A stretch of 39,735 bases of DNA from a virus. Shown here one piece after another: positions 3,201-21,043 of this stretch (position 1 is the first letter of the stretch; every line of letters begins with the position of its first letter). The notes under the pieces are model-generated. The model was not told the DNA's origin and made no database searches. It was given only the letters and a program-made list of their open reading frames with translations. The stretch lies in the UHGV virus genome UHGV-1362164; one strand, written 5' to 3'. The position numbers and the translations under genes were made by a program.

Positions 3201-4720
3201 GTGTTGGTGAAGAAATTCAATAGAATAATCGAGATACTCACACGGCTAGACAGCTATCTTGTCTAGCCGTGTTGTTGTTCTGGCTTTAGTCAGTTGGGTA
3301 GTATTCTTAGTTTTCTTAAAATATTTTCCTCGATATAAAAAGATTCGTTCTCGGTAGTTTTGAAAGTTTCTAAAGCCATAGGCAATTCGTTTTAGTACTT
3401 TGATATGGTTATTCAAACATTCTATAGGGCCGTTGGAATAGGGAACGCGCAACGCTCGTTTGATTTCTGTTTGGTATTTCTTGAAGGTCGTGAACACTGG
3501 TTGGTAGTGCTCTGGCAACTCCTTGTAGTCTTCTTTTAGGAGCGCGACGAATTCAGGAACATCTTGTCTTCTGATAACGGAAAGAAAATCCTGGTAGACT
3601 TCATAGCCTCGCTTTAAGGAATCATCATAAGATAATAGCCGATCGACTATCTCTGCTTCTGTCAGATGATCTCGAAATGACGGACGCCAGTAGCGATGCT
3701 GACCTTTCAATTCCCACGCATTCTTTTGAAGTAGTCTCCAGTATTTCTTTAAGTGCTTCGACCGACGATCCCCTTTTTTAAAGGTCTTCATTACTTGAAT
3801 TCGGTGGTTGGTAAAAGCCCGACCAATGTGTTGGCTAATATGAAAGCGATCGGCGACGATTCGGGCATTCGGAAAACACTCTTTCACCAATGTGCGATAG
3901 GGTGTATAGAAATCTGAAACCACTAGACGCACTTGTTCACGGACTTTTATAGGGTAGCGCAAGAAATAGTCGCGTAAAGGATCAAGTTGCCGATTTTCCA
4001 CAATATCAATCAGTTGATGGGTTTTGCCGTCCATCATGACAAAGCTCATGGCTCCCGAGACGTTTTTCACCGATTTGAATTCATCGAAACACACCACTTC
4101 TGGTAACGGCTGGTTCAAAGAAACGGTTTTAGGCCGAAGGCTGCGAAGTATTCGAATGACAGTGGTCGGAGAAATGTGCTTCATACGTGCAATCAAAGAC
4201 ATAGAAATAGGCTCACTTAATAGCTCAAGAATGGCTTGTTTGACTCTGCGGGCAATGGAGCAGCGACGATCACTAACTGAATCTTCTGCTAAAAAAGTCT
4301 TTCCACAGTGTTTACATTTGAAGCGCTGTTTGTTAATCCGCACAATGGTCTTGTAGTTACTGACATCATATTCAATAAGATGGATACTTTTTTCCAGCCC
4401 CATTTAATGATCGTTTGCTTATTTTGATAGTGGCAATGGAAGCATTCCTCTGGTTGATAGGTCAATGTGCCATCAAAAACAAAACATGTTTCGTCATTAA
4501 TGCGCTCTTTGCGAAAGGCATCTTCATGAAAGGTAAGATTTAGGTCTAGAATATCTAGTAACTCTTTGGTAAACTCTGAATAGGACATCTTGAAACACTC
4601 CTTTGAATGGTTTTCGTCGACTTTATTCTAAAGGATTTCAAGGTGTCTGTTTGCGTTTATTAGAAAAAAGAAAAAGTATTGGCAACAGAAGGCGTCACCA
4701 ACACTAGATATTATAGAGCC
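3185..4720 (-). mobile_element. ISL3-family insertion sequence (1536 bp), complete, flanked by a perfect 8-bp target-site duplication GAAAAAAG
   Basis: Imperfect terminal inverted repeats: GGCTCTtcgtcaatgAGTGTTGGTGA at 3185 and the reverse complement of cACCAACACTagatattatAGAGCC ending at 4720. Direct repeat GAAAAAAG at 3177-3184 and 4721-4728. The size and the 8-bp TSD are typical for the ISL3 family. Confidence 0.75.
3246..4588 (-). pseudogene. ISL3-family transposase split into two overlapping ORFs (4289..4588 and 3246..4403) by a -1 frame change in an A6 run
   Basis: The N-terminal ORF carries a zf-ISL3-like CxxC..HxH motif (ECFHCHYQNKQTIIKWG). The downstream ORF continues with RINKQRFKCKHCGKTF and a DDE-type body. 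The two frames meet at TGG-AAAAAA-GTA (plus-strand T6 at 4388-4393). RBS AAAGGAG precedes ATG 4588. This could be a homopolymer error, an inactivating mutation or slippage. Confidence 0.7.
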
Positions 4721-16640: not shown

Positions 16641-16653
16641 CGATGAGACAATA

Positions 16654-16860
16654 TCAGTCTTCAATTACAACTCGTTGTACAACAGCCAAGTTAATCAACC
16701 TGGAGTTGCTAGATTGACTATGTCTTACATGAATCCAATTAGGTTCTTCAGGTAGTTCGTTAATAAGTGTGTCAGCGTGGAAGCTATTTCCGCGATCATA
16801 GCGAAATGCAACTTCTTTTCCACTTTTCAAAGTATCAATAATTATTTTTTTAACCATAGT
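16654..16860 (-). CDS. Opposite-strand hypothetical protein (68 aa) with its own promoter; moron-like
   Basis: ATG 16860 after AAGGTGA. Extended -10 TGATATAAT on the minus strand (plus coordinates 16887-16895). Terminator hairpin downstream. Confidence 0.45.
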   Translation of the reverse strand, partial: TMVKKIIIDTLKSGKEVAFRYDRGNSFHADTLINELPEEPNWIHVRHSQSSNSRLINLAVVQRVVIED

Positions 16861-17080
16861 ATATTTCACCTTCTTTCCTAGAAGGATTATATCATTCAAA
16901 ATGCTGAACAGTAAAAGTAATTCCGGTAACTCTAATATTTACGGAGGTGGCTGAATGATCAGCATAGAGAAATTTACTGCATTCTTTTTTTAGGATTTTC
17001 TTATGGTTATTAGTTATGGCCGTCATTGACTACAACAAATATTACAGAAAATAAAGATCCGGTAACCGAAGATATAGCAG

Positions 17081-17580
17081 AAAAAAAGACTGCCACGGTA
17101 TGAAACGGCAGTCAATGAACTATGGATAGCTGATTAGAATAGCTCAAAGATATTTTACCATAAAAATAGACCACTGGGATTAGTCAGTGGTCAGCAAGCT
17201 AGAGAAAGTGACTCTTGTAGTATTAGGAAGATTCGTCTAGCTCTCTTCTATGATACAACAAATGATCAAACAAAAACAGACCGCTGGGGATTGGTCAGCG
17301 GTCGTGAGCTGATTGAAATATGCTTTTAACCCGATTGAAAAAAGGAGGGGCCAGCTCACGTATATTGTACAACAAAAAAAGACAGCCGACCACTGGCTGC
17401 CTAGTGAAAGATTCTCTGTCTAGTTTCCGCTAGACATAAGCATTTTACCATAAAAAGGCCGCTGCATATAAGGAAACAGCGGCTTTGAGCTGGAATTGAA
17501 GTGTGATTGTAAGTTTGTGGGTGTCCAGCTCACCATGTATTATACAACAAAAAAGCACCAAGCGTTCGCTCAATGCTAAA
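17081..17580. repeat. Array of 5-6 degenerate ~100-115-bp tandem units, each an A-tract, a GC stem-loop, a second longer stem-loop and a TACAACAAAAAA/TTACCATAAAAA linker
   Basis: Stem-loops: GACTGCC..GGCAGTC (17088-17112), GACCACTG..CAGTGGTC (17169-17192), GACCGCTG..CAGCGGTC (17279-17303), CAGCC..GGCTG (17385-17400), GCCGCTG..CAGCGGC (17458-17479). Second hairpins: AGCTAG..CTAGCT, GTGAGCTG..CCAGCTCAC, TGTCTAG..CTAGACA, GAGCTGG..CCAGCTCAC. No ORF of 60 aa or more lies in 16900-17445. Confidence 0.6.
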
Positions 17581-17625
17581 AGGATTAACTGGTCATTAAT
17601 CATTATAGCATAAGGAGCGATCGCC

Positions 17626-18042
17626 TTGGAACTGTTTAAAGATATAGATGTTAAAGAAACAAAGCTTAGAGCTAAACGAGTGTTATCAACATACCGTCGT
17701 TTGAGAAGGATCGCAGGACAAGATGAAATAAATTTGCGATCGCCCATTATTACCGATATGCCGAGAACACCGAGTTCGTATACAAATAAGTCAGAAGATG
17801 CTACGTGCATCAGAGTGGATGCTGAAAATGAATTAAAAGCAATAAACGCAGCATTGAATAGAGTATCTCGAATTAGTAGAGAGGTAATATCGATGACCTT
17901 TTGCGAAAACGAAAAACTGACGGCTTTTGCTATCGGTTTGGAGATTGGATACTCAGAACGAAGTATTAAAGATTTGAAGGCACAGGCTCTTTTAGAGTTC
18001 GCAGATGTGTATAGAGATGGAAAATTAATTGTGAAGAAATAA
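17626..18042 (+). CDS. arpU: ArpU-family phage late-gene transcriptional activator
   Basis: 138 aa. The N-terminal FKDIDVKETKLRAKRVLSTYRRLRRI and the C-terminal sigma-region-4-like segment match the ArpU family pattern. RBS TAAGGAG. Confidence 0.8.
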   Translation: MELFKDIDVKETKLRAKRVLSTYRRLRRIAGQDEINLRSPIITDMPRTPSSYTNKSEDATCIRVDAENELKAINAALNRVSRISREVISMTFCENEKLTAFAIGLEIGYSERSIKDLKAQALLEFADVYRDGKLIVKK

Positions 18043-18385
18043 ATTGCCCTTTTTCTGCCCTTTTTGTTCGGAAAAAGGTGCTATGATAGTAGTATCAATT
18101 AGTATGTAGATGGCACACAAAATCAAAAGAAAGAAGTGAATAGCTCCTCTTCCTTTAAAGTTTACGTGCCGTCTATTTATTATTTATTATTGAATATTAT
18201 ATTGAGGATGGTATACAGATGAAGACTTATGAAGAGAAGCTTCAAGAGTTATTAGACAACAAAGAAGCTACACCTATTGAGTGGAGTCAAAGCAACGAAG
18301 AGAAGAAAAATGGTTACACGGAAACGGAAGTTACCTTCAAATACAAAATAAAAACCCCCGTAAAGAAATAGCGGGAGTTCAAACA

Positions 18386-18664
18386 TTAGAATCTCGGCAA
18401 GTTTAACAGATTATCCTTTGTTGTATGATTTGCCCTTGTTCTAATATAGGGCTCCCCGTATGTTGGATGAACTGATTCCACCTGAGCTTTTGAGTAAGCA
18501 GTAGTAGTGTAGTAGTATTCCATATTCATATCTAAGTAACGGACTACTTGTTCTACTGTTTCTATAGTTCCTCCTTCTAATTTTACATGAGTAATTTTGT
18601 CTGTAGAAGTCACGTAATTCTCAGAAGTTCTAATGTGAGTAATTCTGTATGCCATTTTTATCAC
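18386..18664 (-). CDS. DUF3892-family small protein, opposite strand, own promoter and terminator (moron)
   Basis: Motifs YRITHIRTS...ITHVKLEGG...NLLNLPRF fit the DUF3892 pattern. RBS AGGAGGTGA. Minus-strand promoter TTGTCA-16-TATAAT (plus coordinates ~18682-18708). Minus-strand terminator ACTCCCG..CGGGGGT plus a T-run (plus coordinates ~18345-18375). Confidence 0.7.
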   Translation of the reverse strand: MIKMAYRITHIRTSENYVTSTDKITHVKLEGGTIETVEQVVRYLDMNMEYYYTTTAYSKAQVESVHPTYGEPYIRTRANHTTKDNLLNLPRF

Positions 18665-18946
18665 CTCCTAGTATTTATTATACAACGATCGTTATGTTTG
18701 ACAATATAATTATGTCACTGTGGCAGACTGGGGAAATGCAGAGGATATGCACAAGGTGTGTACGACTCGTTAGCAAGGTTAGGATCCTTGCCAGTGACTT
18801 AGGGAGGACTCTACTGCTACTGCATGGAGTATCTGACCCAAAAGAGATTGAGCAATAAGCATGAGGCAATCAGACCACTGAATTATCCCAGGGCTTTTGC
18901 TGGATAAACAATCTCAATAGCATGCTAGGAGGTAGCTCCTCCAAGT

Positions 18947-19022
18947 TGACGTGTAGCATCATTGGTGATGCGTCTGACTGTTAGAGTTGGAAATGAGGTC
19001 GGTTCGAATCTGGCCGCGTCAA
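18947..19022 (+). other. Degenerate tRNA-like element (not a confident tRNA)
   Basis: 7-bp acceptor TGACGTG/CGCGTCA with one G-U. Perfect D stem GCAT/ATGC. Canonical T loop TTCGAAT with a G-U-containing stem GTCGG/CTGGC. Weak anticodon stem CTGAC/GTTGG with loop TGTTAGA (the central triplet would be TTA, but position 33 is G). 7-nt variable region and 2-nt D/anticodon spacer. Confidence 0.25.
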
Positions 19023-19103
19023 TTAATGCAACCGAGGATAGAAGTGGTACGTGGAGGATCAGCACGATGACGGTGCTATGTAGGTTGCTTTATACATAAT
19101 CAA

Positions 19104-19126
19104 GATCGCTTCGGCGGTCTTTTTGT
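19104..19126 (+). terminator. Intrinsic terminator (UUCG-loop hairpin plus T-run) downstream of the tRNA-like element
   Basis: GATCGC-TTCG-GCGGTC followed by TTTTTG. Confidence 0.5.
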
Positions 19127-19826: not shown

Positions 19827-19985
19827 ATGTTAACTATAATTTCTGTATTATTTTTATGTATGAAAATATTAGGAATAGTTAATGTGTCATGGAACGTAGT
19901 TCTGTTATGTGAAATTATTTTTCTGTCTGTTTCTTATTTAGAGTTAAGATTGATTTATAAATGGATCGATAAAAGGTTTAAGTGA
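19827..19985 (+). CDS. Small two-TM membrane protein (52 aa), co-transcribed with 19193..19813
   Basis: RBS TAGGAG plus ATG 19827. Sequence MLTIISVLFLCMKILGIVNVSWNVVLLCEIIFLSVSYLELRLIYKWIDKRFK. Confidence 0.4.
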   Translation: MLTIISVLFLCMKILGIVNVSWNVVLLCEIIFLSVSYLELRLIYKWIDKRFK

Positions 19986-19987
19986 GA

Positions 19988-20018
19988 TCACTCATTCGAG
20001 TGGTCTTTTTATTTTGCG
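19988..20018 (+). terminator. Strong intrinsic terminator after the membrane-protein cassette
   Basis: 8-bp stem GATCACTC-ATTC-GAGTGGTC followed by TTTTTATTTT. Confidence 0.6.
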
Positions 20019-20020
20019 CA

Positions 20021-20298
20021 CAAAAATAGACCACTACCGGGTAATAGTGGTCAGGAAATAAATGAAAAAGATGTTAGGGTTGTTAGATGAGTATAACATC
20101 ATAGCGCTTACATAGCAATACAAAAAAAGAGCCACTGTTTCCGCAGCAGCCCTTTAGTGTAACAAGTAAACATAATATATCATCCTTAGTCATGTATTTC
20201 AACACACAAAAATAGACCGCTGTTTCCGCAGCAATCTATCTGTGAAACGTAAACAATTTATGCATAAAGCATGCAATAATAACGCTTACATTGAAACG
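20021..20298. repeat. Three degenerate ~88-98-bp tandem units related to the 17.1-17.6 kb array (each starts ACAAAAA(T)AGACC/AGAGCC plus stem-loop)
   Basis: Unit starts at 20021 (GACCACTA..TAGTGGTC), 20119 (GCCACTGTTTCCGCAGCAG) and 20206 (ACCGCTGTTTCCGCAGCAA). Shared downstream segments GTAAACA and A(A/G)CGCTTACAT. Confidence 0.5.
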
Positions 20299-20557: not shown

Positions 20558-21043
20558 ATGAGTAAGTTAAGCATAAAACAACAAGCCTTTGCTGATGAGT
20601 ACATCATCACGGGTAATAAATATCAATCAGCAAGAAAAGCTGGGTATAGTGAGAATTATGCTAAAGGTAATGTTTCGAAATTGTTGGAAAATGAGAGAGT
20701 TAAGAAATATATTGAAGATCGACTAGAGGAAATCCAGAGTGAAAAGATCGCCTCTCAGAAAGAAGTGTTAGAACACTTAACTAGGGTTATGAGGCGAGAG
20801 GAACAAGAGCATCAAGTTGTTACTTTAAGGACAAAGCAAGAGAAGTGGCTCCCTGATGACCAAGGCACCATGAGAAAGCAAACGGTTGAAACCGAAGAAG
20901 CAGAAGTGGTACCTATGCCTACGAGAGTTAGCGATACGAATAAAGCAGCGGAGCTTTTAGGTAAACGCTATGCGATGTGGACTGATAAGCAAGATATTAC
21001 TGCGACTGAAGTAGTCACGATTGTAGATGATGTAGATGACTAA
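20558..21043 (+). CDS. terS: Terminase small subunit (P27/Terminase_2-like)
   Basis: N-terminal LSIKQQAFADEYIITGNKYQSARKAGYSENYA matches the small-terminase HTH pattern. Directly precedes and overlaps terL. Confidence 0.8.
   Translation: MSKLSIKQQAFADEYIITGNKYQSARKAGYSENYAKGNVSKLLENERVKKYIEDRLEEIQSEKIASQKEVLEHLTRVMRREEQEHQVVTLRTKQEKWLPDDQGTMRKQTVETEEAEVVPMPTRVSDTNKAAELLGKRYAMWTDKQDITATEVVTIVDDVDD

Follow-up and report, generated by a model that had tools for sequence, protein, structure and literature searches.

The window analysed here, 39,735 nucleotides of viral DNA (UHGV virus genome UHGV-1362164), is DNA of a temperate Enterococcus phage or prophage, and the same 39.7-kb scaffold also appears in an assembly from a gut metagenome. 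Six consecutive structured units on its minus strand, designated U1 to U6, fill a 530-bp gene-free gap (17080-17612), and all of them are opposed to arpU, the adjoining gene of the late-gene transcriptional activator. We propose that the units are antisense small RNA (sRNA) genes that restrain read-through expression of this activator, an interpretation in which our confidence is evenly balanced. As judged from sequence comparisons, the element appears to belong to a family that is widespread among temperate phages of Enterococcus, linked there to the late-regulator gene, and apparently undescribed.

Each unit has a −10-like box that abuts the preceding T-tract, followed on the minus strand by a GC hairpin and a T-run, and in U2 to U6 a 5′ stem-loop lies between the two (Table 1). 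A GC hairpin followed by a U-run in the RNA, as in intrinsic terminators, was found at six minus-strand sites; on the plus strand of the array an A-run precedes the hairpins, and nothing of the T-run type follows them. A consensus scan of 16.0-20.5 kb gave 16 terminator-like sites versus 2.1 ± 1.2 in shuffled sequences. An earlier reading made from the letters alone (the sequence-only reading) had described five or six tandem units of about 110 bp at 17081-17580. Tandem structured units are indeed present, six in number, but the start-to-start spacing of 75 to 110 bp (mean, ∼93 bp) does not agree with a strict 110-bp unit, and the array, confirmed over that extent, continues to 17612 on the right, since the promoter of U1 adjoins the ribosome-binding site of arpU. 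The units had also been called related yet degenerate, which describes U2, U4, U5, and U6, members of one family, and not U1 and U3, which are of other kinds. The linkers that had been quoted were located (ATTTTACCATAAAAA twice, at 17152 and 17442; TATTGTACAACAAAAAA and TATTATACAACAAAAAA at 17363 and 17538), as were the quoted arms (CCAGCTCAC at 17351 and 17525).

The array has no genuine coding frame, as had been stated, and contains just unconserved open reading frames (ORFs) of 30 to 40 aa. A protein-coding reading was rejected, given that indels among homologues are not multiples of three and the changes are compensatory; no small hydrophobic toxin-like ORF with a Shine-Dalgarno (SD) sequence was seen in the array. 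The units are not the identical direct repeats with unique spacers of a CRISPR, in agreement with the sequence-only reading. Tandem Repeats Finder reported no array in the region because the units are too diverged; they are diverged modules and not sequence repeats. The stretch is identical across four independent assemblies and is therefore not a sequencing artefact.

The conservation of the RNA structure was assessed in arpU-centred loci (designated by L and a number), for which related prophages were collected via ArpU homologues, and in motif-selected loci, for which 35 IMG/VR contigs were picked by a 21-nt motif from a unit loop. RNAalifold applied to ten aligned “GAGCT”-type units gave two hairpins with compensatory changes in 6 of 15 pairs. 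The covariance model built from these ten units, R1, matched U2, U4, U5, U6, and, at 26 bits, V3, a unit of a second array in the window, and it recovered units outside its seed (U6, V3, and several in L027, L032, L033, and L040). In 640 kb of arpU-centred loci, R1 gave 23 matches with E < 0.02, all of them antisense to arpU. For 17 distinct sequences, 95.7% of the cells were paired and double changes occurred in 13 of the 15 pairs; none of 500 shuffles scored as high, and slid controls gave 30 to 46%. In the 51 distinct sequences from the motif-selected IMG/VR contigs, 97.2% of the cells were paired and 13 of the 15 pairs again had double changes; none of the 500 shuffles reached this level, and slid controls gave 15 to 44%. 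The 5′ hairpin covaried in all 7 of its pairs. Paralogous units are just ∼50 to 70% alike, and their structure is held by compensatory changes, which therefore points to long-term selection on the RNA fold. Loci with the junction pattern GGTCTTTTTGTGNTAWAAT served as a specificity control for R1. In IMG/VR, this pattern gave mostly chance matches, with only 4 new loci that had a strong R1 unit, plus one weak match; in 170 kb of mostly unrelated viral DNA, R1 gave four strong matches, and both of those then checked were followed by a U3-like unit.

The RNA is assigned to the minus strand by the distribution of G-U pairs and T-runs in the sequence. Across the stems, G-U pairs outnumber A-C mismatches 13 to 3, and T-runs lie 3′ of the hairpins on the minus strand alone. 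Folds of the minus-strand units (two hairpins each; the terminator hairpin only for U1) gave z-scores from −2.5 to −5.5, lower than on the plus strand for five of the six units. The U1 hairpin can form three G-U pairs on the minus strand alone, where the plus strand has mismatches, and its z-score of −2.5 compares with −0.3 on the plus strand, no better than shuffles. Minus-strand folding of each unit and covariation among homologous prophages had been named as checks by the sequence-only reading; the first gave a double-hairpin fold in U2 to U6 with negative z-scores, and the second showed that the stems covary and the structure is conserved.

The position of the −10-like box is fixed relative to the structure. 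Aligned on the start of the 5′ stem, the upstream 30 nt of 67 distinct units show a T-run, a G at −14, and then T-A-[T/C]-A-A-T at −10 to −5. In 41 of these units the hexamer TA[TC]AAT precedes the 5′ stem by exactly 4 nt, and TGn stands before the hexamer in 28. An extended −10 box of the TRTGnTATAAT type is found in U1 (TATGCTATAAT) and in U3 and U6 (both TATGGTAAAAT); U2, U4, and U5 (TATAAT, TACAAT, and TATCAT) conform only in part, their TG being displaced by one base. Full promoters were observed in homologues (TTGACA-16-TGtTAAACT in L028), as were TGnTATAAT versions. A start 6 to 8 nt past the hexamer would place the 5′ end of the RNA at the foot of the stem, which is a common feature of stable sRNAs. 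The idea that the array consists of tandem promoter-sRNA-terminator modules on the minus strand thus draws support from covariation, G-U pairs, T-runs, the fixed −10 box, and the antisense matches, and transcription of these modules is predicted.

The position of the array relative to the regulator gene is equally constant. Among 72 distinct arpU upstream regions (ArpU 45 to 99% identical), an antisense T[AG]TGnTATAAT directly abuts the complement of the SD sequence in 70, and a hairpin with a T-run follows this promoter within ∼110 nt in 62. The group with 45 to 47% identity comprises E. faecalis phages, including phiFL1A-C, phiFL2A/B, phiFL3A/B, phiEf11, and IME197; in the annotation of the phiFL1A record there is no RNA feature at this site. 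In the IMG/VR loci that have a regulator gene in reach (26 of 26), the R1 array lies 88 to 128 bp upstream of that gene on the opposite strand, and the gap corresponds to a U1-type unit. The regulator is ArpU-like in some of these loci and a 162-aa protein of the Sigma70_r4 type in the others; in L141 and L037 the same U1-type layout precedes the latter protein. Our own scan of 770 kb found 541 terminator-like hairpins antisense to arpU versus 222 sense, and all 19 clusters of at least three regularly spaced same-strand terminators, some of which lie in duplicate copies of one phage, were antisense.

The number of units per array ranges from 1 to ∼10 across phages. Two to four units precede arpU in E. 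malodoratus, E. xiangfangensis, and E. hermanniensis prophages and in several IMG/VR contigs, some of which carry extra arrays of 3 to 5 units elsewhere in the early region. The 35 motif-selected contigs contained 144 R1 matches, with up to 7 detectable units per array, and their arrays reach 9 to 10 units over ∼1 kb when interspersed U3-like and U1-like units are counted.

Rfam 15 at gathering score gave no match in 17080-17612. At E ≤ 5 the sole match in the array was Ref1C over U3, with none for U1, U2, U4, U5, or U6. A blastn search with 16650-18050 against 50,697 phage records found no match, and the literature on Ref1C, on arpU sRNA or antisense RNA, and on tandem phage sRNAs held no account of an array before arpU. 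The earlier statement that no phage element of this kind has been described was upheld against Rfam 15 and the literature searched, and R1 is at least one new RNA family without an Rfam entry.

Table 1. Positions and elements of the array units, the second array, and the flanking genes in the window.
Feature	Coordinates	Strand	Promoter-like element	5′ stem-loop	Terminator hairpin	Remarks
U1	17548..17612	−	Extended −10 TATGCTATAAT, 17612-17602		17577-17554; T-run to 17548	Short body; predicted RNA ∼50 nt; promoter abuts complement of arpU SD
U2	17452..17544	−	TTGTATAAT; −10 TATAAT, 17544-17539	GTGAGCTGG/CCAGCTCA, 29-nt loop	17485-17457; T-run	R1 match 17448-17533, 54.6 bits; fold z-score −5.5
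U3	17373..17452	−	Extended −10 TATGGTAAAAT, 17452-17442	TCTAG-CGGAAA-CTAGA	17402-17380, loop AGTGGTC; T-run	
U4	17270..17369	−	TTGTACAAT; −10 TACAAT, 17369-17364	GTGAGCTG/CAGCTCAC; C/U-rich loop, CCCCUCCUUUUUU ... AAGCAUAUUUCAA	17303-17279; T-run	R1 match 17270-17359, 70.4 bits; close homologue in L141, before a regulator of a different family
U5	17162..17255	−	TTGTATCAT; −10 TATCAT, 17255-17250	GAGAGCTAGA/TCTCTAGCT	17192-17169; T-run	R1 match 17160-17245, 67.8 bits
U6	17080..17162	−	Extended −10 TATGGTAAAAT, 17162-17152	GAGCTAT/ATAGTTC	17113-17088; T-run	R1 match 17079-17147, 41 bits, outside model seed; close homologue in L141
V1-V3 (second array)	20020..20262	−	TTGAAA-17-TATATT (20202-20174) and TTGCTA-17-TATACT (20118-20090), both with TG		20241-20210, 20155-20126, 20052-20029	Upstream of terS
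arpU	17626..18042	+				138 aa; late-gene transcriptional activator; array antisense to its upstream leader
68-aa gene	16654..16860	−	Promoter-like site, 16915-16886			67 aa in source assemblies; next downstream of array, co-oriented

According to the ORF list, early genes run rightward from ∼9.5 kb to 16628 without large gaps. Ltr genes, arpU included, are located at the end of the early cI-controlled (repressor-controlled) transcription unit, and Ltr proteins, ArpU included, are the sole phage proteins required to turn on the terS late operon; their constitutive expression is harmful and disturbs the phage cycle (PMC3753634). On the plus strand between 16628 and arpU there is no promoter-like site and no convincing terminator, two weak hairpin matches in the array being without a T-run. 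Together with the Ltr operon structure, this leads us to infer that transcription starting in the early operon reads through the array into arpU. In the mechanism that we propose, a sigma-A-type −10 box directly after the T-run of the preceding unit would make each unit an independent sRNA gene, six in all, with transcription starting at the foot of the 5′ stem-loop and stopping at the GC hairpin and U-run to yield an RNA of ∼50 to 95 nt. Polymerases from the six leftward promoters would collide with or block the rightward read-through, and the sRNAs, perfectly complementary to the arpU leader, could pair with it. Collision or occlusion combined with pairing would keep arpU expression low and insulated in the lysogen, or would postpone the late switch, and the number of units, from 1 to ∼10, may set the strength of the gate.

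Several observations weigh against this gating mechanism. The promoters of U2, U4, and U5 have no −35 box and no correctly spaced TG. Prophages with 97 to 98% identical ArpU have U1 alone, which means that the array is dispensable, and related arrays occur elsewhere in the early region (L033, L040, and L027), the site before arpU being frequent and not exclusive. The IMG/VR loci were picked with the unit's own motif, and the alignments used for the pair counts were fitted to the model. Moreover, phages whose regulators differ share closely conserved single units, down to the loops, and the loop motif AAGCAUAUUUCAA is kept while the stems vary. Such conservation would not be required of a purely cis-acting roadblock; it could reflect sequence-specific functions in trans or recent exchange.

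The main rival, possible if doubtful, is that the units encode trans-acting “sibling” sRNAs carried as moron-like cargo. Expressed from the prophage, these would use C/U-rich or otherwise conserved loops to pair with mRNAs of the host or the phage, perhaps at SD regions, or would titrate the partner of the host sRNA Ref1C, and the site before arpU would be no more than a permissive insertion site. The 5′ hairpin loops are C/U-rich, as in U4 (CCCCUCCUUUUUU), and the motif AAGCAUAUUUCAA is common to units with differing stems and terminators and present in 35 viral contigs. Units are conserved individually and shuffled between phages with unrelated backbones, the array is accessory, U3 has both Ref1C loop motifs, and the arpU-terS region also houses tRNA genes and other cargo. 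No standout target was found, however, in the DNA of this phage or of related phages: matches were of 10 to 12 nt, and longer complementarities (13 to 14 nt) were only to paralogous units or A-rich runs. A cargo model would not predict arrays that are strictly antisense and keep a fixed distance from the regulator in all 26 loci, nor would it predict a promoter abutting the SD sequence in 70 of the 72 regions.

The six strong hairpin-and-T-run terminators on one strand could also be read as a stack of one-way terminators, an insulator against leftward transcription into the early genes or the 68-aa gene in which the −10-like boxes are incidental. A precedent exists in mobile elements such as Tn916, where terminators act as insulators against untimely expression (PMC11658703). 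We consider this improbable, since 41 of 67 units keep the −10 hexamer 4 nt from a 5′ stem that covaries, the 5′ hairpin, which has no role in termination, covaries in all its pairs, and some homologues have complete −35/−10 promoters. Furthermore, the nearest leftward gene past arpU, a DUF3892 gene, has its own hairpin and T-run at ∼18376-18348, identified by eye. The fixed −10 box and the covarying 5′ hairpin likewise disfavour, as a sole function, the transcription insulator shielding the gene at 16654..16860 that the sequence-only reading had suggested.

Little more can be said for selfish or neutral intergenic repeats, that is, mobile or recombination-prone cassettes of terminator and promoter at the module boundaries of mosaic phages, which we hold to be just as unlikely. 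The units number from 1 to ∼10 and differ in order from phage to phage as if shuffled, the recurrent junction TTTTTGTGnTAWAAT could act as a recombination site, and related hairpin modules are found on both strands between arpU and terS; yet compensatory changes keep the structure of paralogues that are only ∼50 to 70% alike, the orientation is uniform, and neither terminal inverted repeats nor target-site duplications were seen in the arpU-centred and motif-selected loci examined. Finally, it is very improbable that the inverted repeats are bound as DNA, whether by ArpU, a packaging protein, a repressor, or another protein: they are regularly spaced and adjoin a regulator gene, with a conserved palindrome (GCGATCGC) at the arpU start and DnaA-box-like repeats in U1 of E. 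faecalis-type phages, but G-U wobble is tolerated on one strand only (13 versus 3), the arms vary freely if pairing is kept, by compensatory and not symmetric changes, a T-run follows every 3′ hairpin, and the known position of the ArpU box, after the arpU stop codon, holds a different repeat, two copies of TGCCCTTTTTC, that does not occur in the array. The DNA-level binding array for ArpU or packaging that had been suggested earlier is disfavoured on the same grounds.

The sequence-only reading had pointed to 20.0-20.3 kb for comparison, and a second, related minus-strand array is found there, upstream of terS, with V3 as the R1 match (Table 1). Its units are conserved in L006, L010, L021, and L027. 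In L027, an E. malodoratus prophage, an rve (transposase/integrase-core) gene at 1970-2929 on the minus strand splits a distal sRNA array from the arpU-proximal units. A family of plus-strand terminators, GATC(A/G)CT...(A/G)GTGGTCTTTTTATTTTG, is repeated between arpU and terS (19102-19121 and 19984-20007), with up to four copies in L026 (4637-5286); its 3′ half resembles the minus-strand terminators of the array (…AGTGGTCTATTTTT).

The segment formed by the U2 terminator and U3 matched the Ref1C family (RF02845) with 29.2 bits (E = 0.2), below the gathering score of 90, whereas a true Ref1C used as positive control scored 149.8 bits. In the permissive mode of Rfam, relatives of U3 also gave subthreshold scores, of 33 to 41 bits (29 to 41 bits with U3 included), and all were antisense to arpU. 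Both Ref1C loops, GCGGAAA(A)C and CCAGUGGUCGG, are present in U3, in TCTAG-CGGAAA-CTAGA and GGCAGCC-AGTGGTC-GGCTGTC. In nine U3 homologues both loops are invariant, and 5 of 14 stem pairs have changes on both sides. In arpU-oriented loci, the motif GCGGAAAC occurred 69 times antisense and 12 times sense, and CAGTGGTCGG 22 times antisense and once sense. By these sequence features U3 resembles Ref1C and may be its distant relative, at a score that falls short of family membership.

Ref1C (“Enterococcus sRNA 1C”) has been mapped as a primary transcript and detected on northern blots, and each of the 25 E. faecalis genomes examined carries it (PMC3074167). Like U3, it has two hairpins with loops CGGAAA(A) and AGUGGUC; in contrast to U3, it has longer stems and resides in core chromosomal DNA beside transporter genes, not in a phage, and the other five units of the array do not match it. 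On the E. faecalis chromosome, unrelated host genes flank its locus. In L173 (3860-4260; OR846590.1), the locus is a small cluster in which a promoter-hairpin unit with a GGCGGAAACC loop is followed by Ref1C, with a BsrC-family sRNA on the opposite strand. OR846590.1 is a 138-kb “phage” record flagged UNVERIFIED_ORG, and the genes beside Ref1C look chromosomal.

Past the early genes, the gene order is the leftward small gene, the gene-free 16.9-17.6 kb, arpU, a cargo region that includes a tRNA-like gene, and terS/terL, which start at 20558. The arpU product is 98% identical to the NCBI protein [quoted passage not shown] and has a weak Sigma70_r4 match in Pfam. The 68-aa gene matched no Pfam or PHROG family. 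A tie between this gene and the array was rejected: the closest viral homologue, in L037, has no array, and unrelated genes follow the arrays elsewhere.

The 8-bp palindrome GCGATCGC lies at 17617-17624, between the arpU SD sequence and its TTG start, and is kept in every locus with ArpU at least 60% identical; ∼30 bp around the start are nearly invariant in DNA. In U1 of E. faecalis-type prophages there are two perfect DnaA boxes (TTATCCACA) 11 nt apart and a third near-match, on the minus strand 52 to 63 nt upstream of arpU (L053, L054, L055, L067, L079 at 3438-3457, and L047 at 2689-2708). Directly after the arpU stop codon, at 18045-18065 on the plus strand, stands the direct repeat of two copies of TGCCCTTTTTC. 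The ArpU boxes of phiFL2A, also direct repeats, were mapped just downstream of arpU (PMC3753634), and given this same position the repeat in the window probably serves the late promoter as its ArpU box; that promoter would then lie ∼2.5 kb upstream of terS.

In the cargo region, ARAGORN predicted, at 18946-19023 on the plus strand, a tRNA of 78 nt (“tRNA-Stop”) whose anticodon, UUA, makes it a possible ochre suppressor and which is below the Rfam tRNA gathering score. Its homologue in L006 and L010 has another anticodon loop and is called tRNA-Lys(UUU), and in further relatives the arpU-terS interval holds tRNA-Lys, Cys, or Tyr genes. The leftward DUF3892 gene (18386-18664, minus strand) was found only in this phage among the relatives examined, and it has a near-consensus promoter, TTGTCA-16-TATAAT (18704-18677), within the late-leader region.

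Several known systems share features with the array. The LhrC1-5 sRNAs of Listeria monocytogenes, reportedly described by Sievers and colleagues in 2014, are multicopy sRNAs. They resemble the array in being head-to-tail genes of ∼100 nt in a Firmicute host, each with its own promoter and terminator, and in having C/U-rich loops. The LhrC copies are, however, closely similar, chromosomal, stress-induced, and act in trans on SD regions, whereas the units of the array are strongly diverged, phage-borne, and antisense in the leader of one regulator gene. LhrC had no Rfam match in the array. Tandem genes with a predicted promoter and terminator of their own, which characterize sibling sRNAs, are seen in the array and in homologous arrays.

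Antisense control of late or lytic regulators is known in phages from the paQ and OOP RNAs of lambda, where the late-gene activator Q is the case in point, and from sar of P22. Like the proposed sRNAs, these are short antisense transcripts with their own promoter and terminator that oppose the transcript of a key lytic regulator. They differ in being single transcripts of Gram-negative phages that overlap coding sequence, while the array has 1 to ∼10 tandem units in a noncoding leader, none of them over the arpU coding sequence, and no sequence relation to them. Within the same genus, prgQ/prgX of the E. faecalis plasmid pCF10 is a convergent-transcription switch in which polymerase collision and antisense pairing produce a threshold response. 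The array as proposed would likewise combine collision with antisense pairing, although pCF10 has one convergent promoter pair on a plasmid and the array is a series of short terminated units.

ToxI and CRISPR arrays share with this array a noncoding tandem layout in mobile DNA, and here a small co-oriented gene follows the array. Their repeats are short, near-identical, transcribed from one promoter, and processed, in contrast with diverged units of 75 to 110 bp that each have a promoter-like box and a terminator. No toxin or cas gene linked to the array was found. A type III toxin-antitoxin (ToxIN-like) array was rejected, as Tandem Repeats Finder reported no repeat, the units are individually terminated, the 68-aa gene has no family, and unrelated genes follow the other arrays.

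These results bear on how the late activator (ArpU, RinA, or another Ltr protein) is silenced in Gram-positive lysogens and how its expression is timed after induction, for which the known model merely puts the late-activator gene at the end of the early operon. In nearly every phage sampled from this ArpU clade, phiFL1-3 and phiEf11 among them, a conserved antisense promoter touches the ribosome-binding site of arpU. This promoter, with its expansion into arrays that reach about ten structured sRNA genes, is a concrete candidate for control of the late activator. The resemblance of U3 may also link a host sRNA, Ref1C, to phage-borne relatives. Closely similar unit types occur in the late-regulator leaders of otherwise different Enterococcus phages, and the sRNAs of a prophage would thus form a nearly perfect antisense match to the leader of a related phage that enters the cell or already resides in it. 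That the arrays are an RNA-level system for phage-phage and phage-host interaction is, in our view, unlikely, though less so than the insulator. If true, resident prophage sRNAs could block the late switch of a relative, amounting to a sequence-specific, multi-unit RNA immunity or dominance, and Ref1C-like units could mimic a core host sRNA or titrate its partner.

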